This document shows positions 501 through 61,093 of a stretch of 64,000 nucleotides of DNA, one piece after another. Every line of letters starts with the position of its first letter. Within the stretch, counting starts at the first letter, position 1. The translations under genes and the position numbers were made by a program. Source of the DNA: Lingula anatina (lineage: Eukaryota > Animalia > Brachiopoda). Under the pieces are notes generated by a model, which ran no database searches, was not told the DNA's origin, and worked only from the letters and a program-made list of their open reading frames with translations. The stretch is taken from NCBI GenBank assembly GCA_051362555.1, contig CM120644.1:3170954-3234953 (forward strand). The letters run 5' to 3'.

Positions 501-3500
501 GTAACTTGGATTCTCCAGAAGGAGGCTTCGATGCCATCATGCAGGCCACAGTGTGCAAGGTTGGTGTACTCCCTACATTGGTATAATTGAGCTTTCAATA
601 TGTAATGCTGTATTACGATATATGATGCATGATTTCATGACTTATAACAGCAACCAAATGTGATAATGCAGTTTTAATGACCCACTTTCATCTCTGGTAA
701 ATTACATGGTCTAATGCATGTGCACGCTGTCTACAAGCTCATGGTCCAGTTTTACCTGTAAGTTGTCTTGATATTAAAGCATGTTGTATTATATCGTGTT
801 CTAGGAGCAGATCGGGTGGAGAGACCAGTCCAGGAAGATGTTGTTGTTTTCTACAGATGCTACCTTCCACTATGCTGGGGATGGAAAGGTATTATGGACG
901 TTCTTGTATTGGGGATATTTTTGGTTATTATGTTACAGGTCTTTAAAATGTTGTGTGACATCTTAAATTCTTTGGATTCTGTGTTATGAAAATGTGTGTT
1001 ACTGGATGGAAATTAACAAATTAAATGACTATGAATATTATTGTGCACCATTCAAGTTGAGAGAAAGAAAATCTGGTACCTCCTTACTGCTTACTGCTAA
1101 ATATTATGACTGACTTAACTTAGTGAACAGAGTGTGCCATCTACAGTGGAAAACAGCCTGTTCTCTCAGTATGTTCAGTCTTTTTTAGCCAAAAAAAGTG
1201 TCAGATAATATTTCTTGCAACAAGTGAAATGTTTTTGTTTTAGAAAGATTTACATTTATTTTACAAATTTTAGAAAAGTTACATAATCTTGAAAGGTTGC
1301 TTCCAGTGCCCGAGATTGAAATAGATTAAGATTCTGATTTAGTGGTTATAAGTTGTTTTAATGTGTGTTTTAAGAGGTCTATTTCTCCGTATTCCAGCTA
1401 GGAGGTATTGTCACCCCCAATGATGGCCAGTGTCACCTTGATGGCACGGGGACATACACTCACAGCACTCTCTTGGTAAGACACAGCTTTGATACTGATT
1501 TTGAAGTTGAAACCTTGTTAGAATAATTGCCAGTTTTGCCAATTACATCTCAGTGGAGAGCAATCAGACAAAGCTGCAACAAAAGTTGGCTCTTGGAATT
1601 ATCATTCACAATTACCCTTATCCAGTTATTGTCACAGTGACTGCAATAACTGTTAAGCTAAGTTGCCATTTTGCTTTTCATGTTTGTTAACCATGTCACG
1701 CGACATTTCTAGGATTACCCATCCATCAGTCAGATACGCAGCAAGCTATCAGAGAACAAGATGAACCTGATATTTGCCGTCACAGCTGAGCAGAAAGCAA
1801 TCTACGAAAAACTAAGTGATCTCATTGAGGGTTCCAGCACAGGAGAACTGGCGGATGATTCCAGCAATATTGTGGATCTTATTCAGCGGAATTATGATGT
1901 AAGATAATTTACTTTTATTATTCTATTTTATTACTTTGCTTGGCCTTATGCTGCTATGAATAATGCTTGCTGGTGAGTTTTCCAGAAAAATAATTTCAGT
2001 TCTCTTACACATTAAGCTACTGTAATAGTTTCTTCAAAGCAACAGAATTTCTATATTTTTGTGTCTCTAAATGCTTTTATCATCAGCCTCAGGTAATGGT
2101 TACAGTTGGTATTCCAGCCTTTTTTGTCTGAAGTGGAATAGTTCTTGTTTTGAAGAAACTACTCTTTGATTAGCAACTATGTTTATATCATAACTGATAA
2201 GATTCTTTATTGATCTAAGTTTAAATATTTGCAATATAGCTAACACTAAATTAAATGCTTTTCACTGTTGCTAAGGTTTTACTATTGAAAAGGGACATAC
2301 GTTTAAAAGGCTAACATAAATAATAAAAAATTAGACCTTAATATAAAGAACTGCATTCATTTTAAAGTGGAAAAGGACAATGGATTTTAAAAGGTGAGAT
2401 AGACAATGCAGATAATGTCTAGCATTCTTGATCTCATGGTATTCTATTTTATATTTGAATGTTTCAGCTGATTACTTCCAAGCTAGAGTTGGTGGCCAGT
2501 AGTATGGAGAATATATCTGTCAGCTTCAGGTCCAAATGTCAGGGGTGGGTAACAGTTTAAAATGGGGTACTTAAATACAGGGTGACCCCAAGTTATGGAC
2601 TTTCAAGACACAAATAATGTAACTTTATGTCAAATTTCAGGGGTGGGTAGCAGTTTAAAATGTACTTAAATACAGGGTGACCCCAAGTTTTGTACTTTCA
2701 AGATGCAAATAATGTAACTTTATGTCAAATTTCAGGGGTGGGTAGCATTTTAAAATGGGATACTTTGATACAGGGTGACCCCAAGTTATGGACATAACAT
2801 TTTTATGTACAGACACAGATGTGTCTGTACATATTGCCATCACCTGCGTCTGTCGTCGCCGTCGCCGTCACCGTCGCCGTGCACTTTCAGCGTTAACACC
2901 ATAAGTGGAAGACAGTTTTACTTTTTGGCTTTATATTGACAGAGCTGATGAATATTCATAAAACACAGGTCAAATTCGAAAATCAGCATGATCGGGCCAT
3001 TATTGTAGAATTTATGCTGTTTTTTCACTTTTCAGCATATATGCAACACTGTTAACACATTTCAAGGAAAACTCATAGGCCTGTTGTCATGAAACTCACA
3101 GGAGTAATCAATCTTACTAAAACGCAGGTCAAGTTCGAAAATCGGCATGATCGGGCCACTATTTTAGTAGTTATGCTGTTTTTTCACTTTTCAGCATATA
3201 TGCAACACTGTTAACACATTTCAAGGAAAACCCATAGGCCTGTTGTCGTGAAACTCACAGGAGTAATCAATCTTACTAAAACGCAGGTCAAGTTCGAAAA
3301 TCAGCATAATCGGACCATTATTTTATAAGTTATGCTGTTTTTTCACATTTCCTCAGATTCAATTCTTAGGCATGTTAACAGTCTCATTATTTAATTAATA
3401 AGATAAGTAAAAGTGTTTGTTTGACATTTCCTGCATCTTTACAACATTGTTAGTTGATTTTGTAAAAATGATGGTAAACTTGTTATCGTGTATTGTGTAA

Positions 3501-6500
3501 TAAAGTTTCAAAAATGGAAATAAACTCATATCATTGCAGTTTGTAAGATTCAATCATTCACTATGTTCAGAAACTCAGAATGGAGGAAATTGGACATTTG
3601 ACACTGTTCTATTGATATTTTTCACATCTCATCAATTTTCTTTGTTGATCATATAAAAATGGCAGTAAACTGTTAATTTTGTTTTATGTTAAAAAAGTGT
3701 TAAAAATGGAAAAAAAAACATTTCAGAACAGTGCTGTCTTGTTTACATTTTGGCATTTTCAAGTTGTGACTTTGAAGTTCCATGGGCCTGAAGACCTTTG
3801 CTAGTCACTTTTTCTGAATATCCATAATACTAATATTTTATTATTAAAAATTGATGGTCATTATGCTGTTAAACGTTATGTAATATTGCATCAAAATTTG
3901 GTAAAAAATATTTTGGGCACTGCTCCTATGATGACCATTTAAGAAAAATCATGTCACTTACTGTTCTCAAACTTACAGGAAAGAAACATGGGACTAAAAT
4001 ACAGCTTCAGTAGGCAATGCAGTCTGTTTGGTAATTCTTTCTGCTAGTTAAACAGTTTTTTTGTGAAAATTTAATTTTTCACATATTGGCATTTTCAAGG
4101 TGTGACTTTGAAGTTCCATGGGCTTGAAGACCCATGCTTGTCACATTTTCTGAAAATCCATGATACGTATATTTTATTATTAAAAATTGACGGTCATTAT
4201 GCTGTTTACCACGATGTAATATTGCATCAGAATAGAAGAAAACACAATTTTGGGTGCTGCTGCCATGATGACCATTATGGGAAAACCATGTTACTGATGA
4301 TTGCCAAACGTTCAGAAAAGAAATACAGGACTAAAATGCAGCCTGAGTTGGAAAAGCAGTCTAATTGGCTTCTTTTTCTGGAAGTTATACATTTTCAAAA
4401 TGTGAACTTGAACTGCCATGGGCCTGAAGCCTTATGCTTGTTACACATTTTACTTACATTGGTATTACCTGTTGAGCATAATTAAAATTTGATGTTGAAT
4501 TTGCAGTTTAACATAATGTACTTTTGCATCAGAATTGACAGTAGCCTATTTTGTGCATAGTTATTTCCTGCTTTTTGTCTGTACATTTGACAGCTTTGCT
4601 GCCTTGTTGACATTTATAAGATCCCAGTGTGGGTATCAGTTAGGCTGCTATAGGGTGACCCCCAAGTTACCAACATTGGATTTTTGACTTTTCAAAGATC
4701 TGAGGGTGGGAATAATTTGTGTTGAGCTAGGGTGAGCCCAAGATATGAACTTTCAAGATGCAAATTACGTAACCTTTTGTCAATTTGTTAACAATATCAG
4801 CTCATAATGTTAGGGGTAGGGCAACAGAGTAAAATCTGCTGAGAAAGATTTTAAGACATGGAAATTCAGATGTTTCTCCTTCACTTAAATTTAATGGTAA
4901 ACTGATGTCTTCTTCATTATTTGCCCTCAGTTAGTTAATTTTGTAATCAATAAAAAAGATGAATATTAGAGAGGACTTGTATAAATTTAATTTGTACAGT
5001 AATTTGAAAGTATAAATATTATACCTAGTAATGGACAATGTTTTTTGTAACTTTATTTCAGAAACATAACCAGGGACACTTCTTCCTGTGATGGTATGAA
5101 AATTGGAGATGAAGTAAGGGAAAAAAATCATGATCAACAATATATGAAATGTTATAAAATCAATATTATACAAATCAAAGATTTTGAGCATGTTGAAAGA
5201 ATGCACATCCTTGTTTTAATTTCTCAAAAATATCATGGAAGCAATAAAATTCACAGAATAAATTTCGGCAAAACCATCTAGTACGTGGTATTTCCTCTTT
5301 GTGTTGAGTCTGACTGTGTGTCTCTGTAGTTAAAGAGGATATATGTTTAACACAGTGTCACTCGATTGACTGAAATGTATGGAAACAAATGTTGCCAATA
5401 TTTGTTGAATTTTGTGCATTTGTTTATAAAAAGCACATCAGAAAATATAAAATAGGTGCACGTACAGATGACTATTGATAAATACAATTGGATGATTCAA
5501 AAATTAAAATCTAATTGTACATTTCCTTGTTAAAATTTCTATGTACCTATGACAGTCCCTTAATGTCAACATTTATCTTGTAGGTAACATTCGAGGTCAC
5601 AGTAGAGGTCAAGTCTTGTCCCACTGACCGCCAGCAGAGAGTGAGGAACATCACCATCTCTCCCATAGGTTTGACTGACCAGTTAACTCTCCAGATTGAC
5701 CTCATTTGCGAGTGTGACTGTGAGAAAACAGCCAACGAGGTGAGTCTGTGCTGCAGGAGGAGACAGGCAGGAGAATTTAGTGGTGCTCTCTGTGGTAGTC
5801 CTAACGTCACTTTGCTGGTGATTTTGTAGTGTTACAGATGTCCATTTGTGCCAGTTAGACCATAGAGATGAAAGTCTCAGATTTATCTGGGAATTCTGAT
5901 TTTTAGGCGTTTTATTTTTGCCCTCAAAATCACCCATGTAGAACAGCAGGTCTTTGGTACCAACATTTTCAGGGTATTTTTTGAAACCTTCACTTTCATT
6001 TCTGAGATCATTTATTAGTTTTTCTATTTTATTTCACTGCTGCATAAGAAAGAGACAGGGGTAAGATTCAAATTGAGAATGAATTGAATATTATGAACTT
6101 ATGATAGTATTGGGCCAAGGGGGTTACAGTACAGTTGTATTTCTGAGTAGTCACATTTTGTAAATTAATTCAATTGCTTTCCTATGTATCTGCTTTGAGG
6201 AACAACATTTCTGGAAGCTTGTGGCCAAGAGGACCAGTTGTATAAATTTTTTTGGCTTAAAAGTTTTTGTTCCTATAAATTGATTTTTTTCTGCCAACAG
6301 AAAAGAAATGCATCAGAGTGCTCGTACCATGGGACCTTAGAATGTGGCATGTGCACGTGTGATGAAAAACGCTACGGAAAATTCTGTGAATGTGACGGCA
6401 CCAATCTCCAGAGTGAGGATTATGATGCTGCTTGTAAAATGTGAGTTTTTTGTCATTGAGTAAAGTTTAAAAGATCCAGAAAGAGAATGGGCAGTGTTTC

Positions 6501-10592: not shown

Positions 10593-11124
10593 AACCAGGA
10601 ATACAGTGAAGTCAACGATAGAAGTCTTAAACAGCTCTATGCAATGTGGACATGTGTAATATGTATTAACAGTGGTGCTCAAGTAACAGTCCTCTCTCAC
10701 AAAAATAAACTTTTTTAATTGAATTGAATTTGGATGACCGGGCAGGACATACAGCAGCCATTGTTCAGTCATAGAATTTGTCCCCAGTAATGGGAGGTAA
10801 AGGTGGATGGTGCTAGCAAGGAGGAAGCATTCATTTTATGAAAAAAAGAACTTGGTCCTCAAAGAAGAAAAAATGCTTGAAATATGAAGTTTTTTAAAAG
10901 CCATCTTCTTGGCCTCATTTCTATAGAATCTGCACATATATTTTTGGCATATTAAAAACACCATTGTAATTGTCGTCTATACAGTGCATTACTTAGTGTC
11001 TAGCTTAATAGCCTCTGCATAATTTCTTTGCCTAATATCTATAGTCATTGCTTATATGGAACAAATCTTGTGCAATGCATTTTTAAATTTTTCTATAACT
11101 CAAAGACAATTCTGATGTACATGA

Positions 11125-11290
11125 ATTTACAGTACCCTAATAGTGGTAATCAGAATATTTACAGTACCCTAATAGTGGTAATCAGAATATTTACAGTACC
11201 CTAATAGTGGTAATCAGAATATTTACAGTACCCTAATAGTGGTAATCAGAATATTTACAGTACCCTTATAGTGGTAATCAGAATATTTAC
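11125..11290 (+). repeat. 32-bp minisatellite (5 copies) in the probable integrin 3' UTR
   Basis: ATTTACAGTACCCTAATAGTGGTAATCAGAAT at 11125, 11157, 11189, 11221 and 11253. Confidence 0.95.
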
Positions 11291-13149
11291 GTCTGTGGCA
11301 GAGCTATCAAGTAAGCTTGAATATTACAACATATGTAATATATATTACTACATATGTACAGTGCTCTCTTACTATGAAAAAAAATCCCATTTCATGGGGC
11401 ATACATATATTTTATGTATGTATATCTAGTTGTAGAGAATTTATTTATAGATATTATACTAGCCAAGTGAAAGATATTTAGTCTGTACCAAGTCTCTTGG
11501 TATATTTGAGCTATACCTGTAAAGTTGGTACATGTGTGACTTTGCTAAGAGATATACAGTATTAGTAGAGGTATTTTTGTGAGTATAATGGCCAAGGACA
11601 TAAGTTGCACAAAACAGCATAGTTATTACGCATTAAAATGAAGAAGTGTTAAGAGTTACTTGTATTTAATATCATAGCAGTATAGAGGAACAGTTCTGCC
11701 TAGTTTACGAAATGTTGCCATGGAGAATTAGTAATTGATGTGGCATTCGTAGTGAAGTGTATATTTTGAAGTAGAAAAGCTGGAGCTTTGTGACTGGTAG
11801 ATTTTCCTGATGTGATAGCTTAGAGTTGGTTGTAGCAGAATATATGAACGCTGTTGCCTGTTTCCTTTTTGAAAACACTGTGCAATTAGCCTGCATTTCA
11901 ATGTACAAATGCTTTTCTTTAAATTTGTCCAAAATTTCATATGTTTCTTACCAAATACTACCCATAGTGGGCAGTGTTCTAGGTAAAAAATAGTTAAAGA
12001 CAATTGCTCTCGTAAATTTGTATTTTTTACTTACATTTGCCAAACCCAAAGATGTTTTTTTATTGAAAACCAATCTGAATACTCATAGATACATCGATTG
12101 TATGTATTTGTATGTGTGCTTACAGCCATGTGTGCTTGATTTGGTGTGTTGTCAAGTTTTGAGTCTCTTTTTTGACTTTTTGATGTTTTTAACTTCAGTC
12201 CCCATTTTACAGTGTTCCCATTTTCAAACTGCCTTTGTACATTTTTAATTTTTTCTCCATATTTTTCTCTTGTCTCACTGTTTCAACTTAAAGTGCATTT
12301 TACGGGCATATTCTGCCTTTTTTTAAGAGTAGAGAGATGTTAGAACTTTTGTGGGCATGTGTTTAAAAAAAAAATAGCGAATGAAAATTTTATTCTTCAC
12401 TCAGCAGTAAGGTTTTTGAAATGCTTTAGGTAATGTCCAAACCAACATGCTAAACTCAAACACCTTATTGTATCAGTCAGATGGGCTTCCATATGTTCTA
12501 GCATGGTGTACATTTTTAATACCCACCCAACCACCACCCAACTCTTTTAACAATGGCATTGTTTTATGGAGTATACCATTTATCAAGATTTTCAATAAAA
12601 CTTATTTGTGTCAAAATTTATCTTTTGACATGCTTTTCCAAGTTTTGCAGGTTTTAATAGAGGCGAGTTGAAATGTATGGTCTCTCTAAAATAATTGTTT
12701 TATTACACGTGGTGCTGTGTCAAATATAATTCATTCAGGTCATGTGACCAAAATAATTCACAATATTTCCCAAATTATGAGAGAACAATTCTTATAAATT
12801 AGAGCTAGATGTGACGCCGCTACAATATTGACAGTGGACCTGAGTTAATTTTTTCTAGTGACTGCATGCATTTTGCACTGTAATGTCGGTAATAAAGAAA
12901 TCGTTCAGGTATGGCTAATTAAATCCATGAAAGATGCGCGTACGGAATAGGCTAATTCGATGGCGATTGGGTGTTTTCTCTGTCTTTTTATATAGCAAGT
13001 CCAAATGGCAATGAGCTATACATAAAACACATGATGGAGTACAGGTATGTATGGAGGTAATGGATATTCCAGACATTTACAACAGGTGCGAGATGTCAGA
13101 GCAGAGCTGCACCCTGAGGTTCACAGCCTTGAATTCACACAGTTCTTTC

Positions 13150-13372
13150 AAGGATGTTTTTTTTCACTTCCGGTTGTCTGTTCGTTTGTTTATTCATCAC
13201 CAGCTTAACTTAAAGATTATGGCTGCATTTTGATGAAATTTTCACGTTGAGTCAGAAATGCGCTAACTTCACAATGATTAGATTTTGGTGATGATCTATT
13301 TGTTACTGTTAATGTTTAATAAATTATATGTCTTGGCGGAGGCATGCGCTATTTGGGTGCTTTTCTAGTTCT
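13150..13372 (+). mobile_element. Degenerate short HINE/DINE-like element
   Basis: GTCTGTTCGTTTGTTT microsatellite-like stretch, TTTTGATGAAATTTT core and 3' motif CTTGGCGGAGGCATGCGCT...GTGCTTTTCTAGTT; the same end motif recurs at ~27143-27182. Confidence 0.5.
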
Positions 13373-13478
13373 TTTTGTTTAATGAAATATGGTATTTCTA
13401 AACGTTAAAGTGTGGGATGCATGGTTGGCACAAAACCCTGAGTAGCCAGGTATTAACATGAACGTCTTTTATTGGGAT

Positions 13479-13798
13479 TGTTACGAATAAGCAAACTTCT
13501 TTAGTCTTTTTCACATCTATTTTATTTGCTTGTCATTGAAATTGTCACGTAGAAACTGAAATGAACAAAATACATCAAATTAAGAAATTATCCTTAAATT
13601 ATGTTACAATTACAACTTATAAAGTTCTTATTAACTGTTTAAATTACTAAATGATTCATAAAGTCTTACCTCATTGCGGGAATTAGTGACTTTTAATGAT
13701 CAGAACATAACTAACTATAAGCGCGTGCTCTAGTCAAAAAAGTAAAACGCTATCTCCACCGATGTGCATAACAGCTAAGACGGGCCAAAACCTTAACA
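13479..13798 (-). repeat. 3' LTR of the BEL/Pao element
   Basis: 320 bp, termini TGTTA...TAACA, no differences from 19324-19643 seen by eye. Confidence 0.97.
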
Positions 13799-14089
13799 TG
13801 GCTCCCCTAAATTGTGAAAGCAATTTACACAATATACACCGTTTACCTTATCATTACGTATAAAAAATATTTGCTCGGAAATTATTAAGAATTACCGTAC
13901 CTTAAACACTTTTAAGGAACATCAAAACTTACTGTTAATTACCGTATTAAAACATAAAATACTTTGCAATCCCATAAACACAAATAGCTCGACATGTAAC
14001 TGTCTTTAGAAAACAAAAGTGTTCATTAAATCTACACAAACTGTAGCATAGAATCATAACAAAACTGACATTATTGTCACAGTTAACAG

Positions 14090-17000
14090 TTATTTTGGCT
14101 CCTCGACAGGGTCTTCTCCGGTCAACAAAAGAATTAACTTGTGCACTGGTCTCTCATATGTAGAGTCCCTAACTTTCAACTTGACCTTACGCACATATCC
14201 ATCTGCACTTTGAAAGGTTTCTGCTATGCGACCAAGTGGCCACTGATTTCTTGGTGCACTGTCATCTATCATGAGAACAATATCTCCAACTTGTACATCT
14301 TTATGTTGTTTGATCCACTTTTTTCTTTCTTGTAATGTAGGAAGAAATTCCTTTCTCCACCTGCTCCAAAATTCATTGGCTAGATATTGAACATGTCGCC
14401 ATCTTCGATGAAGATATGTGTCTTTCCTTATGAAATTCCCAGGTGGTGGCATCACGACCTTAGTTTTCAGGGTCAGGAGCTGATTTGGAGACAAAGGCAT
14501 TGGAGAATCTGGTGACTGTGTATCAATGTAGGTCAAAGGTCTACTGTTAACTATGGCTTCTGCCTCAGCTAACAATGTGGACAAGGAATCATCATCTAAA
14601 CGGTCACTGTGAGCTGTGAGAAGTCCTGATAAAGCATTTCTGGCTGATCTGATCATCCTTTCCCACACGCCTCCCATATGTGAAGCATGAGGAACATTCA
14701 TTTCAAACTGAATCCAGTCACAATGGTCTTTCAGAAGTTCTCTCCTGATCTTGTCCTGATCCATATCCATAAAGGCAGTTTCTTGCTCTCCCTTAACTCC
14801 AATGAAATTGGTTCCACGGTCTGCTCTGAGTAGACGTACTGGTCCACGCCTGCATACAAAGCGTCTGTAGCAGTTAATGAAAGAATCTGTGCTGAGTGAA
14901 TATGCAACTTCTATATGAATAGCACGTGATGCTAAACATGTAAACAAAGCACCATATCTCTTCATCTGCTTTCTTCCCTCCTTCACATAGAATGGTCCAA
15001 AGAAATCTACTGCACTGTAGGTGAATGGAGGTGCTGGTTCCAGTCTGTCAGCTGGAAGATCTGACATTTTCTGACTCTGTGAGTTTGCTCGTAGCTTACG
15101 ACAGGTCACACATTTCCATATATATGATCCAATCTTGGCACGGCCAGAAATTATCCAATAGCCACTAGCTTGGACTTCATTAAGAGTAATGCCACTTCCT
15201 GAATGTCCGCATCGTGTATGATAGTGGTCAATTATGAGATTTGTGACGTGATGATGCTTAGGCAGAATCACTGGGTGTGTAAGCTCTCTGGGTAGATTTG
15301 CCCTCTTTATACGACCACCTACTCTGAGTAGTCCATCTTCACATAAAAATGGGTCTAGGCGGTATAGTGAACTGGTTTTCTTGATTTGTTTGTTGCGATA
15401 TCTTGCCTGTTTTCTCTCTGTGTGTTCACTGTTATCTTCTCTGTTAATTGCTTTCAGTATTGCAATTTCCTTCTCAAATGTAGCAGTCTGTGTTGACTTG
15501 AGAATGATCTTTTCTGCCACTTGTATTTCTTGAACATTCAACGGTTCATTGCTGGTCTCAACTGTGTTCTGCTGTGTAGATTTCCTGTTCTTAGCTTGTT
15601 TCAGCTTCTGTATGAATCGTAAACACCACGTAACAACTCGTGTTGCTCTGTTCCAGGAAGAAAACCTTTTCAATACATCAGACAAGTGATCATGGTTGGT
15701 TTCTACTTTAGTAGCAAATACACTGACTTCAGATTTGCGTACTTCTGGGTCATCTGGTGCTAGTCTGAATTGGGTATTAGTGGTAGATGGTGGTTCATCA
15801 ATGAGCAGAAAGTCTGGCCCACTCCACCACTGTTCATTCTGTAGTAGCTCTGTCACACCTGTTCCCCTGGAGGCTATATCAGCTGGGTTGTCACTGGACT
15901 TAACATGCCTCCATTGCGATGGCTGACTGACTTCTCTAATTTGTTGTATTCTATTTGCTACAAAGACATGAAATCTCTTAGCATCATTATTGACATACCC
16001 TAGAACAACTTTGCTGTCAGTCCAATACACATGGGTGATGTCCTCATACTCTAACTCCTTGGCAAGAAAGGTCCCCACCTTTATAGACATCACTGCTGCT
16101 GACAACTCTAGGCGTGGGACTGTCACTGGTTTAGAGGGAGCTACCTTGGACTTGCCCATAACTAATGTGGTTGCTATTCTTCCTGTGTTGCTTTTAAGTC
16201 TCAAGTAACTGCACTGACCTAGGCCTTCTACACTGGCATCTGAGAAGTGATGAAGTTCTGCAGTAGTCACTTCACCAAAATCATTTGGCTTATAGCACCG
16301 TGGTATATTCAACTTGGTTAAGTTCAGCAAATCTGAGCGCCATCTTTCCCATCTGCATCTAATACTCTCTGGCACTTGATCATCCCACTCTGCACCGTCT
16401 CTGCATAGCTCTTGGAGAATTTTCTTACCGGCAAGGATGAATGGTGAGACAAGGCCTAAAGGGTCAAATATGGAACTTACAGTGGAGAGAATTCCCCTTC
16501 TTGTTAATGGCTTATCATTGATCTGGACCTTAAACTGAAAACTGTCCGCTTCTACACACCACTGTACTCCTAAAGCTGGGCATATTGGCATTGTGTCTCT
16601 GTTAAGGTCAATGTTTCTCATTTCTTTGGCTCTCTCTGACATTGGGATTGTATTCATCACTTCACGGTTGTTTGATACTAGCTTGTGAAGTCTTAGGTTA
16701 CCTTTGTTCAGCAGCTCTCTTGTTTCTCTAACAAGACGTATAGCTTCTTCACTTGACTCGATGCTCTTGAGTCCATCGTCTACATAGAAGTCATTCTTAA
16801 GAAAGGCAATGACGTCTGGTGAATACTCATCTTGGTAGTCCTCTGCTAGTTTCCTCAGTCCATACAATGCGCATGCTGGTGAACTTATCGCTCCAAATAT
16901 ATGAGACGTCATTCTGTATGTGATGGGATTACTACTGAGGTCACCGTCTTTCCACCATAGGAACTGTAAAAACTTTCTATCCTCTTCTTTCACTTTAAAC

Positions 17001-19237
17001 CTGTGAAACATGTTCTCCATGTCACCCATGATTGCTACTGGCTGCTCTCTAAACCTCAATAAAACACCTATGAGCGAGTTATTCTGATCAGGTCCTTTCA
17101 ACAGGCAGTCGTTTAGCGCAACATTTTCATGTTTTGCACTGGCATCAAACACCACTCGTAATTTCTCACGTTTCTTGGGGTGATATACACCATGATGTGG
17201 TAAGTACCAACCTCCATCTTCATGAGGTGATTCTTCTGCATAGCATTTATCTATGAGGTCCTGCATAAAACTGTTATAGTGCTCATAATACTTCGGGTTG
17301 TGGATTAGCCTTTTCCTTAGCTGCTCTAGCCTGATCTCAGCTGCTGGTTTGTTGTTTGGCAATGCTGGATGTCCATCTTTAAATGGTAGTGGCATCTCAT
17401 AAAAACCCTCATTGAAATGTATGCCTTCCTCCATAATCTTCATGAACTTCTGGTCTTGAAGGCTTAACTTCTCATCTTTCTGTTGGTCGAAACCTTGGTC
17501 AAAGAGACTGCAAACCTCAGCGGGGCTGATCTCTGTCACTTGTGTTCTAAAGGCAAAGGCATGTGTTCCAAAGCTCTTGTTCTCATCTATGGGTCTTGAT
17601 TTGTCCACTGGCCCTACTATACCCCAACCTAGGTTACATCTGTATGCATATGGCTCCTCTCCTCTACCATGTATGTACTCCAGACCTCTAATGGCTTTCA
17701 TACAGTTTACTCCCAACAGCAGTCCTACCTCTATGTCTGGGCGATAAGGAGTAATCTTATCAGCAATTGAGTGCAAGTGTGGCCATTTCTTAGCAGTTTC
17801 TGGTCTGGGTATCTGTGATCGCTTAACTGGAATGGAGTCTCTGGAGTATGTATCTGGGAGCTCAATCAATGTCTCTTGGTTCAGACCTCTCACAACAAGT
17901 CCTCTAACTTTCCTGCTCGGGACGGTTTTTTCTCCAAGTATGGTTGAAAGTCTGATGTCTACATGCTTCCCTTTACATTCGAGTTCACTGAGGGTCGAGG
18001 ACTTTACAAAGCAGGCATCTGACTGCTCGTCTAGTACTGCATATACCACTGAATAAACGTCTGGATTATCCTCGTGGTGCACTACAACTGGCACTATCAT
18101 GGAATGCACATTCTCAGAACTGTGGGTGGTATGGCATACAGCTGCACCCACTACTTTACTAGTGTAATTGTCATCATGTAGAATTGTTGGATGATAAGAG
18201 TTACATTTTTGGCATTTCATTTTACTTCTGCATTCATGTTTTCTGTGACCATATGCAAGGCACCCAAAACATAACCCATTATTCTTTATAATGCTGATTC
18301 TTTCATCCATTGTCTTTTCTTGCATTTCTGGGCAATGGTGAAGTTTATGTTGTTCCTTGCATAATATACACTTGTGAATGTGTCTTTCGTTGCTGGATGC
18401 AGAGGTACTAGACAGTACTGTTTGTGCTGGAACTCTTCTCCTTGGTGCTGGTATAGGTCTCTCTGGTGGCGGTGGAACCTTTCCAAAAATGGGGTCAGCC
18501 AATTTTCGTGCTTCTTTCTGCACAAAATCGACGAAAACCTGAAAGGTTATCTTCTGTCCCCTTTCCTTCCTTTCATATACTATGCTTCTCCATTTATCAT
18601 GCAATTTGAGCGGCAGCTTCGTCATTAGCCTCTTAAGGTTATCGGGATACTCGAGGACTGGAATGGCATCTATTTCTTTTACTGCATATTCACATTCCCT
18701 TAAAAATATGCCGTATTTGTCTAATGCGACATAATCATCATGCTTTATCACTGGCCACTGTTTGGCACGATTTATATACGATGTCGCAATCTGTTCTTGG
18801 TCCCCATACCTTCTCTCAAATTCCTTCCATGTGGCCTTGAAACCAATGGATGCATCTAAGTGAGCGAATCCTAGCGTAATTTCATGAGGCTCACCTCTGG
18901 TGTATTGCAGTAGATAGTTCAGTTTTTCATCGTCAGAGTCGCATGTTTCTATGATTCTACTTTTGAACTGTCTCTTAAACAGCACATATTTGATCGGGTC
19001 ACCTTCAAATACTTGAATCTGAATTCTTGGTTTACTGAGTTCCTTTGCTATCGTAGTTTGCTCACACAAAGTGAGTGGGGCACAAGATGTTAGTGCATTT
19101 TTGGGCGTAGATGTCTTTTTTATATTTGACTTTGTGAAATTAAAATGCTTTTCCAACTCACACATGGTTTGGTCTATATCCGACTCTACCCTTTTCAGTT
19201 CTGCTTGCAGCAGTAACATTTCCGCTTGTGTTGCCAT
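14090..19237 (-). CDS. BEL/Pao Gag-Pol polyprotein (1715 aa)
   Basis: DUF1759-like Gag (FEGDP), three Zn knuckles (CILCKEQHKLHHC, CFGCLAYGHRKHEC, CQKCNSYHPTILH), protease (VLDEQSDACF), RT (YLPHHGV, KLRVVFDAS, FYVDDG), Pao RNase H (HFSDAS, VPRLEL, DNPADIASRG), integrase (HHCC, VDFFGP, GGVWERMI) and C-terminal WPLGRI/RPVHKL. Order PR-RT-RH-IN. Confidence 0.97.
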   Translation of the reverse strand: MATQAEMLLLQAELKRVESDIDQTMCELEKHFNFTKSNIKKTSTPKNALTSCAPLTLCEQTTIAKELSKPRIQIQVFEGDPIKYVLFKRQFKSRIIETCDSDDEKLNYLLQYTRGEPHEITLGFAHLDASIGFKATWKEFERRYGDQEQIATSYINRAKQWPVIKHDDYVALDKYGIFLRECEYAVKEIDAIPVLEYPDNLKRLMTKLPLKLHDKWRSIVYERKERGQKITFQVFVDFVQKEARKLADPIFGKVPPPPERPIPAPRRRVPAQTVLSSTSASSNERHIHKCILCKEQHKLHHCPEMQEKTMDERISIIKNNGLCFGCLAYGHRKHECRSKMKCQKCNSYHPTILHDDNYTSKVVGAAVCHTTHSSENVHSMIVPVVVHHEDNPDVYSVVYAVLDEQSDACFVKSSTLSELECKGKHVDIRLSTILGEKTVPSRKVRGLVVRGLNQETLIELPDTYSRDSIPVKRSQIPRPETAKKWPHLHSIADKITPYRPDIEVGLLLGVNCMKAIRGLEYIHGRGEEPYAYRCNLGWGIVGPVDKSRPIDENKSFGTHAFAFRTQVTEISPAEVCSLFDQGFDQQKDEKLSLQDQKFMKIMEEGIHFNEGFYEMPLPFKDGHPALPNNKPAAEIRLEQLRKRLIHNPKYYEHYNSFMQDLIDKCYAEESPHEDGGWYLPHHGVYHPKKREKLRVVFDASAKHENVALNDCLLKGPDQNNSLIGVLLRFREQPVAIMGDMENMFHRFKVKEEDRKFLQFLWWKDGDLSSNPITYRMTSHIFGAISSPACALYGLRKLAEDYQDEYSPDVIAFLKNDFYVDDGLKSIESSEEAIRLVRETRELLNKGNLRLHKLVSNNREVMNTIPMSERAKEMRNIDLNRDTMPICPALGVQWCVEADSFQFKVQINDKPLTRRGILSTVSSIFDPLGLVSPFILAGKKILQELCRDGAEWDDQVPESIRCRWERWRSDLLNLTKLNIPRCYKPNDFGEVTTAELHHFSDASVEGLGQCSYLRLKSNTGRIATTLVMGKSKVAPSKPVTVPRLELSAAVMSIKVGTFLAKELEYEDITHVYWTDSKVVLGYVNNDAKRFHVFVANRIQQIREVSQPSQWRHVKSSDNPADIASRGTGVTELLQNEQWWSGPDFLLIDEPPSTTNTQFRLAPDDPEVRKSEVSVFATKVETNHDHLSDVLKRFSSWNRATRVVTWCLRFIQKLKQAKNRKSTQQNTVETSNEPLNVQEIQVAEKIILKSTQTATFEKEIAILKAINREDNSEHTERKQARYRNKQIKKTSSLYRLDPFLCEDGLLRVGGRIKRANLPRELTHPVILPKHHHVTNLIIDHYHTRCGHSGSGITLNEVQASGYWIISGRAKIGSYIWKCVTCRKLRANSQSQKMSDLPADRLEPAPPFTYSAVDFFGPFYVKEGRKQMKRYGALFTCLASRAIHIEVAYSLSTDSFINCYRRFVCRRGPVRLLRADRGTNFIGVKGEQETAFMDMDQDKIRRELLKDHCDWIQFEMNVPHASHMGGVWERMIRSARNALSGLLTAHSDRLDDDSLSTLLAEAEAIVNSRPLTYIDTQSPDSPMPLSPNQLLTLKTKVVMPPPGNFIRKDTYLHRRWRHVQYLANEFWSRWRKEFLPTLQERKKWIKQHKDVQVGDIVLMIDDSAPRNQWPLGRIAETFQSADGYVRKVKLKVRDSTYERPVHKLILLLTGEDPVEEPK

Positions 19238-19323
19238 CTTTTCTAAATACTATGCTGATCGTCTTTCACTAAATCGTCGCTCAGTTTCTATTATCTTTCA
19301 CTAAATCGTCGCTGAGTTTCTAC

Positions 19324-19643
19324 TGTTACGAATAAGCAAACTTCTTTAGTCTTTTTCACATCTATTTTATTTGCTTGTCATTGAAATTGTCACGTAGAAA
19401 CTGAAATGAACAAAATACATCAAATTAAGAAATTATCCTTAAATTATGTTACAATTACAACTTATAAAGTTCTTATTAACTGTTTAAATTACTAAATGAT
19501 TCATAAAGTCTTACCTCATTGCGGGAATTAGTGACTTTTAATGATCAGAACATAACTAACTATAAGCGCGTGCTCTAGTCAAAAAAGTAAAACGCTATCT
19601 CCACCGATGTGCATAACAGCTAAGACGGGCCAAAACCTTAACA
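19324..19643 (-). repeat. 5' LTR of the BEL/Pao element, with a putative 114-nt intron (19514->19401) and an AATAAA (19371->19366)
   Basis: Minus strand reads GAG|GTAAGA ... TCTTAAT (branch-like) ... TTTTGTTCATTTCAG|TTTCTAC, then AATAAA; a TATA-like motif lies at 19564->19561. Confidence 0.95.
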
Positions 19644-21336
19644 GGGATATACTGAAAAAGTCTGATGTTTTTATTCACAGGGTGTGACAACTTAAAAAGC
19701 CAGTGATGTACATGTATCTCTTGTATAGATCTCCCTAGTATGGTAATAAGCACCATTGCTTTCCTTTCTTCAAAAACATGGTTATGTCATCGAATTATTT
19801 GTAAATTGTATGCCCTCACTTTCGTTTTGCGATCTCATTGAAAGCACCATTGTATTTATTGAAGAGAATTTAATTATATGTAATGTTAATCTTGGTAGTT
19901 AGGCCCATTTAGACTGTTTGCAATGCGCATTTCCGTTTTGTCTGTGCTGGAAATTACAGCTGGCATTAACTCAAAAATTTATAGTTTTTCTGTGCCATAT
20001 TTTATTATTATTATAAATGTGATGTAGTGTGCCACGGACTTGATGAAGGTGATGTTACTGTGTGATCTCAATTGCACGATTTTAAGAAGAACCTTCTTCC
20101 GGTAATGAATTATGATCAATGCATCAGTAATCTTATCTGTTTGTTCCTCCTGCATAATGGAATTAAGTAAATAAATGATAATGACATTTTTATCTCGAAA
20201 AGTACAGCTCCGTTTCTCATTTGTACATGTGCCACTGTCATGTGAGATATAAATATGGCGTCAATATTCAACGCTTTTATTTTATTTTATCCCATGAAGA
20301 TCTCGGTGAATGCATTGTCATGCAAAGGAGAATTACAAATAATGCTTTTTCCAGCAACAAAATAATAAAATGTAATAAAACGGACGGCACATTGTAGAAA
20401 TGTATTATAGTTTCAGAGCATTTCCATTTCCTCAACTGCCCTTGCCTCTGGGGTATAATTAATTACATATTTCTCGATCTTATCTGTGCAAATACTTACT
20501 CAGTTGACAGCATGCCAACATATTGTATTTTTTACTTCATGAAACGCGTGGCTACGAAACAGCTATGTTTTTCTTCAACTCAAAAACCAAGCACCCTACT
20601 GTTCGCACGCCCCAGTGCTGGGGTAGAGATTTAGTCAGTTTTAAAGGAACAAAGGAACATCGCCTTTCCGGCAGAAAGGTGGTACCTCATACGTGATACT
20701 GAACTTCACCATAGATTTGAGTCCAGATTTTACGTAAGGATCCCCCCCTCCCCCCAAAAAAAAAATTAAATAAAAAAAATTTACTCCTGGCTGTGAGTAA
20801 AAGCACATATGTGATAGAACACAGGGCGAGTATGGTTAATATATATTCTTTTGTTTGTTCGCCAATTGTTAATGGCCAAAACAGGTGTCTTGCCAGCTGA
20901 GGATGAGTAATACGTGGATCGTACTAATGTACAAGAGAATACAACACACGTACAGGTAAGCTTTGTTGTACTCTTTGTCCTGTCCATATCTTATTGCATG
21001 ATAAAGTGTCTTTTTTTAAATGACCTTGTACCATGATAGCAGTATATGAGGTTAAAATAGTCACAAATATATATATATATATATAATCAGATAATACAGT
21101 GTTTCGCGCATGCTTTATCACTCAGCGTTTAAATACCTATACTATGCACAATGATACGTACATATACCAATATTACAGGTAATTATCGTGGCAGAACTGC
21201 GATGTTGGGCCTAATTCACTGATTTTTCGAAACAGTATGAAAGCGACTTGCAGGTAAACAGCGCCGTTTTAAAGACCTATAACCCGAGAGGGTTCGAATC
21301 TGAGTCTGGACGTCTGGTAGTTGAGCGTGTATGTAA

Positions 21337-31400: not shown

Positions 31401-33069
31401 TTTTTATTTATACACTTATTTATATATTTGAATAACTACATGGGAAATTATACATGTATATTAATTAATGCCATTCAATGTATTCTAGATGACACCCTGA
31501 CTATACATGGGTTAGAGAACGGGACTCTCTATAACGTCCAAGTAATGGCAGTTAACGCAGAAGGAATGGGTCCTCCAACTACAATTAATGTTACTACGCT
31601 GACGACAGACGGTAAGAGACACTGTATTATGTCATATAAATTGAAACGTTTAACGAATTGAAACAGACCTACTGCGATATCTACTGGGGTAACTACAGTA
31701 TTATCTATTTTAGCTGTACTGAAGTTCGGGAAAATATTTTATTATCATGTAATGCTGATAAAGAAGTAAATCGTTCCAAAAAGAATATCAAAGGATTTGA
31801 GAAAGATGAGCTTTTTAATTGTATATACAATGATAAATCATGTCGGCGCCTTATCTTGGGAGATAACTCTTTATGGATTTTTTTTCAATATTTGCTCTAT
31901 CTTTTTGATTAATTTTAAAGGTATGATAATAATGATTATTAGTGTTATTAATTATGTACCTGTTGTTTACACCACGCGCAGTCACGATGCGCAGCAATGC
32001 ACGCCCCGCACTCCAAGTGTGCCGTGCACGGGTTGCTGTCATTTACCACGATCCACGGAGTGTACTTCTCGTAGTAGAATCCTGGAGTATAAAAATAGAT
32101 ATATAAATGAATATACAGGTCGATGGTAACCCCAAACTAATACTAGGTTTGGTACACTAGAATTTTTGTTTTTTGTTTCTTGGGTAAAGGTGACAAAAAG
32201 TTAATCGTTTACAAAGGTTATGAATAGTCTAATATTTTTACAAACTGTTCACTTTTAACCATGTACAGTTGTAGGTACTCCTGCCCCTACAGACCTGCCC
32301 TCCACCAGTACGACTGTAACCACAACCAGTTCTTCCGGCACAACCACTTCAACAACTTCAACCACAACCACAACAACCAGTAGAACCACCGTGACAGCAC
32401 CACCGCCTCTGCCCACTGATGCCGATACCACCACAACACTAACGCCATCTACTGCCAAGACATTGGAATCAACAACTCCCACTGTTGAACCCATGGTAGT
32501 ACCAGTCAAAACGAAAACAGGTGCTCTCTCTCCCTCTCTCCCCCTCTATCTCTATTTTATTATTTCCAGACACGTCACAGTCGTTAAAGTTCTTTTTTTC
32601 TTTAAAGGTATGACATGGTATGAAATGTAAATCTGTTGGAATCTTCCGCCACATTTGAGACTACTTTCGCAATCTATATGTTGCACTAATCTCTTCATAC
32701 AATGTACTCTTAGATCCTTATTCTGTGCTGTTTTAAACATAGTGATAAAATTTGAGCTAGTAGCAATAACGATTATTGTTCTTATTATTTTATATTAAAC
32801 GTATAGGCCTACTGCCTCAGCAGTAGCTTCTTTTTTAGAAGAACATTTCCCAGACATTGTCCAAGACAATTAAAACGTGTCAGAAACCTATTGATAGTGT
32901 GATTATATATATTAATGTAAGTTCCCGGATTTGTTTTGTTCCAGAGTTCTACTACGAGAAGTACACTCCGTGGATCGTGGTGAATGACAGCAACCCGTGC
33001 ACGGCACACTTGGAGTGCGGGGCGTGCATTGCTGCGCATCGTGACTGCGCATGGTGTAAACAACAGGTA

Positions 33070-33109
<40 letters not shown>

Positions 33110-57842: not shown

Positions 57843-59580
57843 ATGTCCACATTAAGTCAAGGAGACCATCCTAACACATTGCTGATTGAGCCATTCTATG
57901 GAGGTTCTCACCGTCAGCTTTTGGATGTTCTGAGTGAGAATATCCACGGCTGCCAAGTGTGCACTCTGCCAGCTAAGAAGTGGCACTGGAGGTCCCGTGT
58001 AGCTGCTCTCTGGTTCTCTCAAAATATACCTGTACGAGAGAGTTACAGGTAAGATTCTTATAAGGATTGATAATCTCTATAGTGAACCTGGAAAGTTGGG
58101 TGAGAGGAGTGGGGGGAGGGGTCTGCAGGCAAGTGCCCTACCTTACCTTTTCAGGTAGGTAGACAAATTTCTTTAGCCAGCTTATTTCTTTTCTAAATGA
58201 AAGGATAGATTGTTAATATAAGCCATCAATTTTTTTTTTTTTTGATAAGTAGATAAAAATAAAATCGTGTATTTCCAGAGTTCTGTTTGCCAGTTCTGTC
58301 CTCAACCTTGCAGAGTTAGTTGCGTTGAGGCCAGATCTGGGAAAGCTGCAGAAGATCCTTTACTTCCATGAAAACCAGCTGGTGTACCCCGTCAGGAAGG
58401 CAAAAAAGGAGAGAGATTTTCAGTTTGGATATAATCAGATTTTATCCTGGTATGTAAATGCATTATCAACTTGTCTGTTTATAAATTTATTTATTTATTT
58501 ATATATTATTATTTGTTTTTTATTTGTTTTGTTTTTTTGTTGTGATATATTATCAAAATTTGTCCCGATAAGAGCTGGTGTGGATATTTTGACTGTCATG
58601 CCAGTCAAAATATTTTGTCTGTATCGACTTATCACCTCAGCTTAGGAGAATATGTTTTGACCTAATATATATTTTTTTACCTAAATGTTGGTTTTGTCAG
58701 ATAAAAGTTATGGACAGATTTTCAAAATATACATGTACATGTACCTCAGCTATCTTGGAATTTATTTGATTTTGGCAGTGATCAGTTGTGATTAATTGAT
58801 ATTAATGAGAATTTAGCTGTGTTGGCATTGGTCTGTACTACTCTCAGTGTTAATTACATTTAATTAATTAATTAATTAATTTTTTCATTCTTCCAAAGCA
58901 TTTTTTTCATTGACCTTTCTCCCTGTGTTTCAGCCTTGTTGCAGACAAGATCGTCTTCAATTCCAAGTTCAACAGGGATTCTTTCCTCCAGTCCATAGAC
59001 ACATATCTCAATGTGCTGCCTGACTACAAACCTAAAGGTCTAGCCAAGCAGATCGAACCAAAATGTACTGTGCTCTACTTTCCCCTCAAGTTGCCCGTGG
59101 TGGTGGTAGAGGATTCGGGGCTGGATGAAAGAGTTTCACATGAATTGATAAAGAAAAAAAGAATAGATCAAGGCATCTGCGATGTTTCTCATGACTGTGA
59201 TAGTAAGAGCAATTTTGGAAATAGCCCTGGGCAGGCGGGTAGCCATATTGAACTAGATTCCAGCTCGTCTGGCTATGGTGACAGACAGGAAGATGAAAGG
59301 AAGAAGCATGAGGACGGCCATTTTTCCAGAAAACTCTCAGAGGAACACTTTAAGTCAGAGGGCTCAGAAACCTCAGGTACACCATTAGAAAGAAGGAACA
59401 GTCAAATTTTTCTACAGAGGTTTCCCAGAGTCAAGGGACAACCCCTCCACATTGTGTGGGCACACAGGTGGGAGCATGACAAAGACCCCGAACTTTTCTT
59501 CAACACAGTGTTACAATTGAAGGAGCAAGGACTGAAGTTTGAGTTGTCTGTTCTGGGAGAGTCCTTCACTGACAATCCAG
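57843..59580 (+). CDS. GTDC1: GTDC1 / tRNA-queuosine mannosyltransferase (QTMAN), 5' part; the gene continues beyond the window
   Basis: Exons 57843-58048 ([24 protein letters not shown]), 58279-58449 ([41 protein letters not shown]) and 58934-59580 ([39 protein letters not shown]). These are hallmark GTDC1 motifs. Confidence 0.95.
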
Positions 59581-60115
59581 GTAGGCTGCATATTTTCTTT
59601 TCGCTGTCGTGGAACCATATTCAAATAATTTGCATTTAGTTAATTTACTGTCAGTGATGGGTGTTAATAATCCATGTTTAAGTATGATGTGTAACTGTCA
59701 TCGAAATTATGAGAAATTTCACTGTTAATTTGATATGGAATAAAGTGTTTTTTTTTTTGTCATTAGACCATGATGCCTTATATTTAGAGTAACCACTAAC
59801 ACATTGATCTTAGCTGGTTGTGGTAGGCGAGATTTTGAGTAACTACTAACACATTGACCGTGGCTGGTTGTGGTAGGTGAGATGTCTTGCATATCAGTAG
59901 CAATTGTTTCCACTCATGATGTCTTGAATTAAGAAGACATGATATTTTGAACTTTGACAAAGTTGGTTTTCAGAGCTATTAAACATCTATGTCATAACTG
60001 AGGAAGTATATTTTGAAGTAGATTTATTATTGAAGTAAATAGTTTGGCGACCCATGTAGAACTGGATAAATACATACTAGTAGACACTGCCAGGTGATCT
60101 ATCACTAAATAATAA

Positions 60116-60167
60116 TTTTTATGTACAGACACAGATGTGTCTGTACATATAGCCATCATCTGCGTCT

Positions 60168-60220
<53 letters not shown>

Positions 60221-61058
60221 GCACTTTTACCGATAACACGATAAGTGGAAAACCATTTTGCCTTTTGATTTGAAACTTGCAGAACTGATGAATATTCATA
60301 ATACGCAGGTCAAGTTCGAAAATCAGCATGATCGGGTCACTCTTAGGGAATTTATGCTGTTTTTTCACTTTTTTCAACATATATGCAGCACCGATAACAC
60401 GATAAGTAGAAAACCATTTTACATTTTGATTTGAAACTTACAAAACTGATGAATATTCATAATATGCAGGTCAAGTTCGAAAAACAGCATGATCGGGTCA
60501 CTTTTAGGGAATTTATGCTGTTTTTTCACTTTTTTCAGCATATATACAGCACTGATAACACGATAAGTGGAAAACCATTTTACCTTTTGACTTGAAACTT
60601 ACAAAACTGATGAATATTCATAATACGCAGGTCAAGTTCGAAAATCAGCATGATCGGGTCACTTTTAGGGCATTTATGCTGTTTTTTCACTTTTTTCAGC
60701 ATATATGCAGCACCGATAACACGATAAGTGAAAAACCATTTTACCTTTTGGCTTGAAAGTTACAGAACTGATGAATATTCATAATACGCAGGTCAAGTTC
60801 GAAAATCAGCATGATCGGGTCATTTTTAGGGAATTTATGCTGTTTTTTCACTTTTTTTCAGCATATATGCAGCACCGATAACACCATAAGTGGAAAACCA
60901 ATTTACCTTTTGGCTTGAAACTTGCAGAACTGATAAATATTCATAATACGCAAGTCAAGTTCGAAAATGAGCATGATTCGATTATTGTTAGGGAATTTAT
61001 GCTGTTTTTTATGTACAGACACAGATGTGTCTGTACATATAGCCATCATCTGCGTCTG

Positions 61059-61093
<35 letters not shown>

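Follow-up and report, generated by a model that had tools for sequence, protein, structure and literature searches.

The BEL/Pao retrotransposon described here, which lies on the reverse strand of a 64,000-nucleotide stretch of Lingula anatina DNA (the window), probably primes reverse transcription with its own spliced RNA, acting in cis, instead of with a tRNA. When this form is taken together with one in which the spliced RNA acts in trans, a self-primer assembled by splicing is very likely. An intron in the LTR, its splicing in a copy of the family, the complementarity of the splice joint to the primer-binding site (PBS), the covariation of joint and PBS among relatives, and exact loss of the intron from other LTRs are established, and RNase H cleavage and priming are proposed by analogy with Tf1. 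A splice-made primer had been suggested in a first-pass annotation of the DNA made from the letters alone. Splicing in a family copy and covariation now support that suggestion, the transcript start it placed at TCACT is not supported by RNA reads of a variant copy, and its cleavage and priming steps would follow the Tf1 precedent.

The window element is an intact, young insertion (Table 1). Its two LTRs are 100% alike across 320 bp, and its single gag-pol ORF carries, in order, Gag with Cys-His motifs, protease, reverse transcriptase (RT, with YVDD), RNase H and integrase. The acidic motifs of the predicted RNase H enzyme are present. Pfam DUF1759, Peptidase_A17 and DUF5641 score above cut-off in the gag-pol protein, no chromodomain occurs among its Pfam matches, and PF05380 was found in 120 of 120 homologues among the matches listed. 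Residues 560-1100 show 100% identity to a Lingula anatina database protein, and the next relatives reach at most 56%. An LTR length within 0.2-1.2 kb, a polypurine tract and a target-site duplication also agree with BEL/Pao membership. The LTRs, the single gag-pol ORF, the protease-RT-RNase H-integrase order, the polypurine tract and the Peptidase_A17, DUF1759 and DUF5641 domains are all shared with the Belpaoviridae as described by ICTV, for which an 18-nt PBS complementary to the 3' end of tRNA-Arg or tRNA-Gly is given and replication is called poorly understood (PMC8742986). In contrast, the PBS of the window element starts with GT and matches its own splice joint. The BEL/Pao assignment is by protein only, and the PBS does not fit the description of the family as tRNA-primed. 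A search of positions 13300-19900 against Rfam gave no match at E values up to 1, and ARAGORN detected no tRNA gene in the 64-kb window or in 24 scanned loci of the 61 related loci described below.

Table 1. Features of the BEL/Pao element and its immediate surroundings, in window positions.
Feature	Position	Strand	Remark
Full-length BEL/Pao LTR retrotransposon, 6165 bp	13479..19643	-	
5' LTR, 320 bp, TG...CA	19324..19643	-	identical to 3' LTR
3' LTR, 320 bp	13479..13798	-	same intron at 13556-13669
Target-site duplication ATCCC (5 bp), upstream copy	19644..19648	-	
Target-site duplication ATCCC (5 bp), downstream copy	13474..13478	-	
TATA-like motif, putative promoter	19559..19564	-	X4 variant-copy reads begin upstream
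Exon-1 part of bulge and outer helices (7 bp, 2 bp, 3 bp)	19519..19534	-	
Exon 1, last 4 nt: 5' part of 11-nt primer helix	19515..19518	-	
GT-AG intron of 5' LTR, 114 nt	19401..19514	-	interval skipped by 12 reads, run X4
Exon 2, first 7 nt: 3' part of primer helix	19394..19400	-	
AATAAA, 3' of inferred RNase H cut	19366..19371	-	
11-nt PBS, directly after LTR, without TGG, starts GT	19313..19323	-	
Leader half of outer helices	19298..19312	-	
Tandem second copy of PBS region, 32 nt, 9/11 identical	19260..19291	-	
Single gag-pol ORF, 1715 aa	14090..19237	-	
Polypurine tract GGGGAGCCA, common to many relatives	13799..13807	-	

Other parts of the window hold several further features. A 241-aa open frame at 58914-59639 on the plus strand has a partial match to QTMAN_N (tRNA-queuosine mannosyltransferase) and is probably a host-gene exon. 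Related composite repeats with units of ~160 nt and 336 nt lie ~58 kb apart at 2567-4811 and 60116-63594, and are likely copies of one repetitive element. Tandem arrays (64 nt, 32 nt) and one MITE-like pair of 145-nt inverted repeats, 835 nt apart, are present at 1-575, 11093-11322 and 31951-33075.

The LTR intron has the features of a spliceosomal intron: a GT donor at 19514-19513, a branch-like motif at ~19429, a pyrimidine-rich acceptor whose AG ends at 19401, and removal from RNA, which was seen for a variant copy in one of seven runs. Donor, branch-like motif and acceptor, which bound an intron of 114 nt, agree with the first-pass annotation, as do the sequence after the LTR (19323 to 19298), which is free of TGG, and the extent of pairing. 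Contiguous pairs anchored at PBS base 1 number 11 across the spliced joint, ending at the LTR boundary, versus 9 in unspliced RNA, such that splicing adds just two contiguous pairs in this element (9 to 11); the next-best LTR site gives 3. Beyond the 11-bp helix and a 2-nt bulge are outer helices, which comprise the 3-bp and 7-bp helices already annotated and a further 2 bp. The duplex energy is -27.2 kcal/mol for spliced RNA versus -12.2 kcal/mol for unspliced RNA, and none of 3000 shuffled primers reached the observed value. Among dinucleotide-shuffled LTRs, 1 of 3000 reached 11 pairs over any GT..AG joint. With the 5' region folded from four possible starts, the predicted probability of the helix is ~1.0 for spliced RNA versus 0.2-0.3 for unspliced RNA. 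The polarity of the helix fits priming, in that the 3' end of the primer pairs with the first base after the LTR.

A feature absent from the first-pass annotation is a tandem repeat of the PBS region, a second copy of 32 nt whose first base is 19291. This copy carries a C>G change at 19282 that improves the fit to the unspliced acceptor (-16.5 vs -12.2), and the copy (19260-19291) could pair with the unspliced 3' LTR. A role as a conserved decoy for unspliced RNA was considered and, as a general feature, rejected: only the window element and one relative (L049, in which a second PBS-like copy with 9/11 identity lies 131 nt away) reach 9/11.

Splicing was assessed in seven of nine RNA runs picked by species label, each of which was sampled (~6% of each, 25% of X7, and one of them twice). 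The junction 19515/19400 predicted by the earlier annotation was found in run X4, where 12 reads with 11 starts join 19400 to 19515, skipping 114 nt with CT..AC on the plus strand. These reads have the mate orientation that sense RNA gives in most stranded libraries (the strandedness of this library is not stated), and sense-oriented depth inside the intron (19440-19486) is zero. The joint occurs in one of the seven runs; the other six list none at a threshold of three reads. Zero reads came from X7, sense reads inside the intron are present in X2, and X6, with the most internal reads (283 in the sample, antisense exceeding sense), has no joint among them.

No read in these samples contains both the joint and the PBS. 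In X4, 16 reads continue from the LTR end into sequence other than the PBS, and positions 19252-19298 have zero depth, so that the most likely source of the spliced reads is a variant family copy, either its 3' LTR or a solo LTR. These reads prove that the splice sites function, but not that the 5' LTR is spliced in full-length RNA. They align 44 nt upstream of the donor, up to 19558, and in eight of them ~21 more letters, loose in the alignment, look by eye like the upstream LTR; the transcript of the variant copy thus starts well before TCACT. The TATA-like motif annotated upstream of TCACT is present at 19564, 30 nt before it. However, the suggestion that pairing begins at the 5' end of a transcript starting at TCACT does not fit spliced reads that extend upstream to 19558. 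At 19323, spliced LTR transcripts in X4 run past the LTR AATAAA into unrelated sequence, and this LTR copy may drive, or sit within, a host transcript. Separately, X6 reads cover window positions 13799-19100 nearly throughout, with antisense exceeding sense and many differences, which suggests that other copies are transcribed in antisense.

An alignment of 52 proteins yielded 61 related loci from metagenome contigs, of which 19 were counted together with the window element (n = 20). Near-duplicates (L008, L011, L013, L015, L022-L024, L058), loci without a 5' region, loci with LTRs split by a contig end (L019, L020, L029, L056) and unreadable loci (L051, L054, L055, L061) were left out, and intron-less loci and those with a second PBS type were handled separately. 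The joint test counted contiguous Watson-Crick pairs anchored at PBS base 1 and allowed any GT with any AG, with donors unweighted. Flanking sequence fixes the LTR end for the window element, L013, L016, L022 and L042; in other relatives it was set by an ACA|GT motif, in some cases picked among several candidates after the pairing had been seen. This choice cannot yield the result below, because null rates are just 0.6-2% per site.

At least 10 pairs form across a GT..AG joint in 19 of the 20 elements (the window element and 18 of 19 relatives), a count in which rows are phylogenetically non-independent and many loci may derive from related hosts. The pairing spans 11 nt in 13 of these 19, 10 in four, 12 in one and 14 in one, and L049 is the one readable relative without a joint. 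Unspliced pairing is 5-9 in all 20, with none reaching 10. Ten pairs were reached in 8 of 352 controls with the PBS swapped between families and in 34 of 5999 with a shuffled PBS. GT..AG ranks first among 256 intron-end pairs, with 19 elements versus 10 for the next and a median of 1. The first-pass annotation had named failure of conservation as grounds for abandoning its proposal; both intron and pairing are kept, with compensatory changes, in 18 of the 19 readable relatives.

The joint and the PBS change together among elements that share 50-82% identity in RT/RNase H (52-58% when compared with the window element). Fifteen distinct PBS 11-mers were found, all starting with GT and none containing TGG. 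Positions 1-2 are fixed; positions 3-10 each vary yet pair in 15 of 15, position 11 pairs in 11 of 15 and position 12 in 2 of 15. Across introns of 107-536 nt, the range seen in these elements, PBS positions 6-11 covary with the exon-1 half, and the joint lies 5, 6 or 7 bases from the primer end. Donors at these joints are mostly GTAAGT-like, even though the search left them unweighted. All primers end with AC. In 18 of 19 a G follows, and in no case is there a T, with which the helix could continue. Two of the relatives with split LTRs (L020, L029) have a visible exon-1 half and donor, and both match their own PBS. An AATAAA or ATTAAA lies between the inferred cut and the LTR end in 15 of 19, and the loop between this cut and the PBS measures 69-206 nt. 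The outer helix has -10.5 kcal/mol with own pairs versus -6.7 kcal/mol with swapped pairs, for rows that are not independent. No fixed TATA-to-donor distance was observed among 13 LTRs. A 1038-nt intron in L053 was dropped, its donor being upstream of the polypurine tract; an in-LTR joint in this locus gives 10 pairs. A tree built by a quick method without L045, an outgroup or named reference elements, does not settle the nearest kin of the window element or the order of events. A search for relatives in viral contigs gave 103 pattern matches, of which 0 were confirmed. In L061 (1-450), the leader adjoins telomere-like sequence rich in TTAGGG, without a readable LTR.

Two relatives carry LTRs that lack precisely the intron predicted in a close counterpart. 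Missing from the 3' LTR of L016 (6695-7104) is just the intron predicted for L018, whose protein is 99% identical to that of L016. The LTR of L030 (1-200, 6924-7206), which ends with ATA and not ACA, is likewise without exactly the intron of L025 (95% protein identity). In both, the 11-mer is unsplit and ready-made. The two LTRs of L016 are just 88% alike, and its contig may mix copies. At the level of DNA, such exact loss is independent evidence for the predicted joints, and intron-less LTRs are the product to be expected if a spliced 3' LTR were copied. These copies also show that a primer can be had by routes other than splicing. A further clade, formed by L035 (1-140), L042 (1129-1145, 7589-8273) and L047 (1-250), has a different PBS and purine tract, and its PBS self-match begins 3 nt after the LTR. 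Unspliced L042 RNA gives 11 pairs directly after an AG, and a candidate joint could extend these to 16. This clade is possibly a second form of self-priming that has no need of splicing.

We propose that a transcript starting in the 5' LTR would undergo splicing and that the joint would then fold onto the PBS, supported by the bulge and the imperfect outer helix. As in Tf1, the RNase H of the element would cleave where the helix ends, at AC^G (19394/19393). RT would extend the resulting 3' end over the 70 nt of LTR still to be copied, and the strong-stop DNA would jump to the 3' repeat. The repeat used for this strand transfer would be the short stretch between the cut and the poly(A) site. 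The 3' LTR would then be copied, usually unspliced, as otherwise the intron would not be inherited; its occasional splicing would give intron-less LTRs like those of the two relatives. Because the 5' part of the LTR is copied from the 3' end of the RNA, progeny with the intron can arise only if the 3' LTR stays unspliced or if priming in trans acts on an unspliced template. A spliced 5' LTR together with an unspliced 3' LTR would result if the cap-proximal intron were spliced preferentially. Finally, plus-strand synthesis would copy the primer back into the PBS, and this proposed step would account for the matched changes in joint and PBS by keeping both in register. The primer probably does not begin the RNA but forms the 3' terminus of a longer 5' fragment. 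With a longer primer RNA, the limit of the match at ~11 nt is unexplained; trimming at the bulge is our guess.

Priming in trans, with a template that stays wholly unspliced and a separate short spliced LTR transcript (from a solo LTR, a 3' LTR or a second packaged RNA) as its primer, is an unlikely alternative that would explain inheritance of the intron without position-specific splicing. It fits the origin of the sole spliced reads in LTR transcripts without a PBS, the sense intron reads in X2, and the excess of intron-bearing elements (19) over intron-less LTRs (2). However, the spliced 5' end is predicted by folding to pair with its own PBS with a probability near 1, the 69-206 nt loop suits a fold in cis, and passages of PMC7175516 describe Tf1 as pairing two regions of its own RNA. 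Priming in cis is also simpler than co-packaging of a spliced RNA. Of similarly low probability is the view that the helix is a structural or regulatory stem that forms once the RNA is spliced (a U5-leader stem, or a switch for packaging, poly(A) or translation) and that another RNA, such as a tRNA fragment, is the primer. Such a stem would be compatible with an outer helix that goes past the 11 bases and with the ICTV description of the family as tRNA-primed (PMC8742986). Yet the helix covers exactly the bases of the primer, from base 1 after the LTR in 19 of 19, and has the right polarity for extension into the LTR. Moreover, each of the 15 different PBS sequences, all of which lack TGG, corresponds to its own joint, and no single tRNA could serve them all as primer.

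Whether splicing matters at all can be judged from the pairing that precedes it. Self-priming of unspliced RNA through the exon-2 part and the acceptor AG, with the intron incidental, could draw on the 9 contiguous unspliced pairs of the window element and seven other readable elements, and on the 11 in L042. Seven elements, however, have just 5-6 pairs unspliced versus 10-11 spliced, and the exon-1 half covaries with PBS positions 6-11. This reading is very improbable, the families with 5 unspliced pairs having already largely refuted it. Chance complementarity is the least credible of all: AT-rich LTRs are rich in GT and AG, and swapped controls do reach 10 in 8 of 352, but against this stand 1 of 3000 shuffles for the window element, 19 of 20 elements versus 34 of 5999, and the marking of the same joint by reads and by intron-less copies. 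The reads, the joint test in relatives and the shuffles together refute it.

Drosophila copia-type elements are primed by internal tRNA fragments and have a PBS without TGG. Such elements keep one tRNA-defined PBS, whereas the present elements have 15 different PBS sequences, each matched to its own joint. The closer parallel is Tf1, whose self-priming by pairing of two regions of its own RNA is described in passages of PMC7175516 and is also covered in part of PMC4600332. The PBS of Tf1 is complementary to ~11 nt of its own LTR RNA, comparable to the 11 contiguous pairs formed here after splicing, and the window element would by analogy work like Tf1 yet outside the Tf1/sushi group. The self-primed elements Tf1 and Tf2 of Schizosaccharomyces pombe, Tj1 and the Tf1/sushi group belong to Ty3/gypsy (chromovirus ancestry), not BEL/Pao. 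Unlike that of Tf1, the complementary stretch of the window element is split by a spliceosomal intron and so is not contiguous in DNA. Tf1 takes its primer from the first 11 nt of its transcript, whereas the helix here lies inside the RNA, with at least 27 nt and probably more than 50 nt separating it from the 5' end. RNase H cleavage is shown for Tf1 and would apply to the window element by analogy. Self-priming in BEL/Pao, or a splice-made primer in any element, was not found in full-text searches as judged by titles and abstract openings, a scope that excludes subscription journals, Repbase, GyDB, supplements and the Saci-1 paper. The available text of a BEL/Pao survey (PMC3118150), the Sinbad paper (PMC554778) and an annelid survey (PMC8556966) contains, by term, nothing on PBS, tRNA or splicing, and the available parts of PMC3601003, PMC4558846, PMC11042837, PMC8672886 and PMC8220671 add nothing relevant.

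Looking beyond the window, we lean towards the view that a widespread animal BEL/Pao lineage uses the host spliceosome in replication, with the primer arising only after removal of the LTR intron, the 5' copy being spliced and the identical 3' copy kept. The model explains the absence of a tRNA PBS from these elements and makes a base-exact prediction, namely a cut at AC^G. If true, it would link the spliceosome to reverse transcription, a connection not found in print in the literature searched, and would establish self-priming in a second LTR superfamily, with the primer built by pre-mRNA splicing. It would also provide a natural case of two identical introns that meet different fates in one RNA, and the control of splicing would gate transposition.
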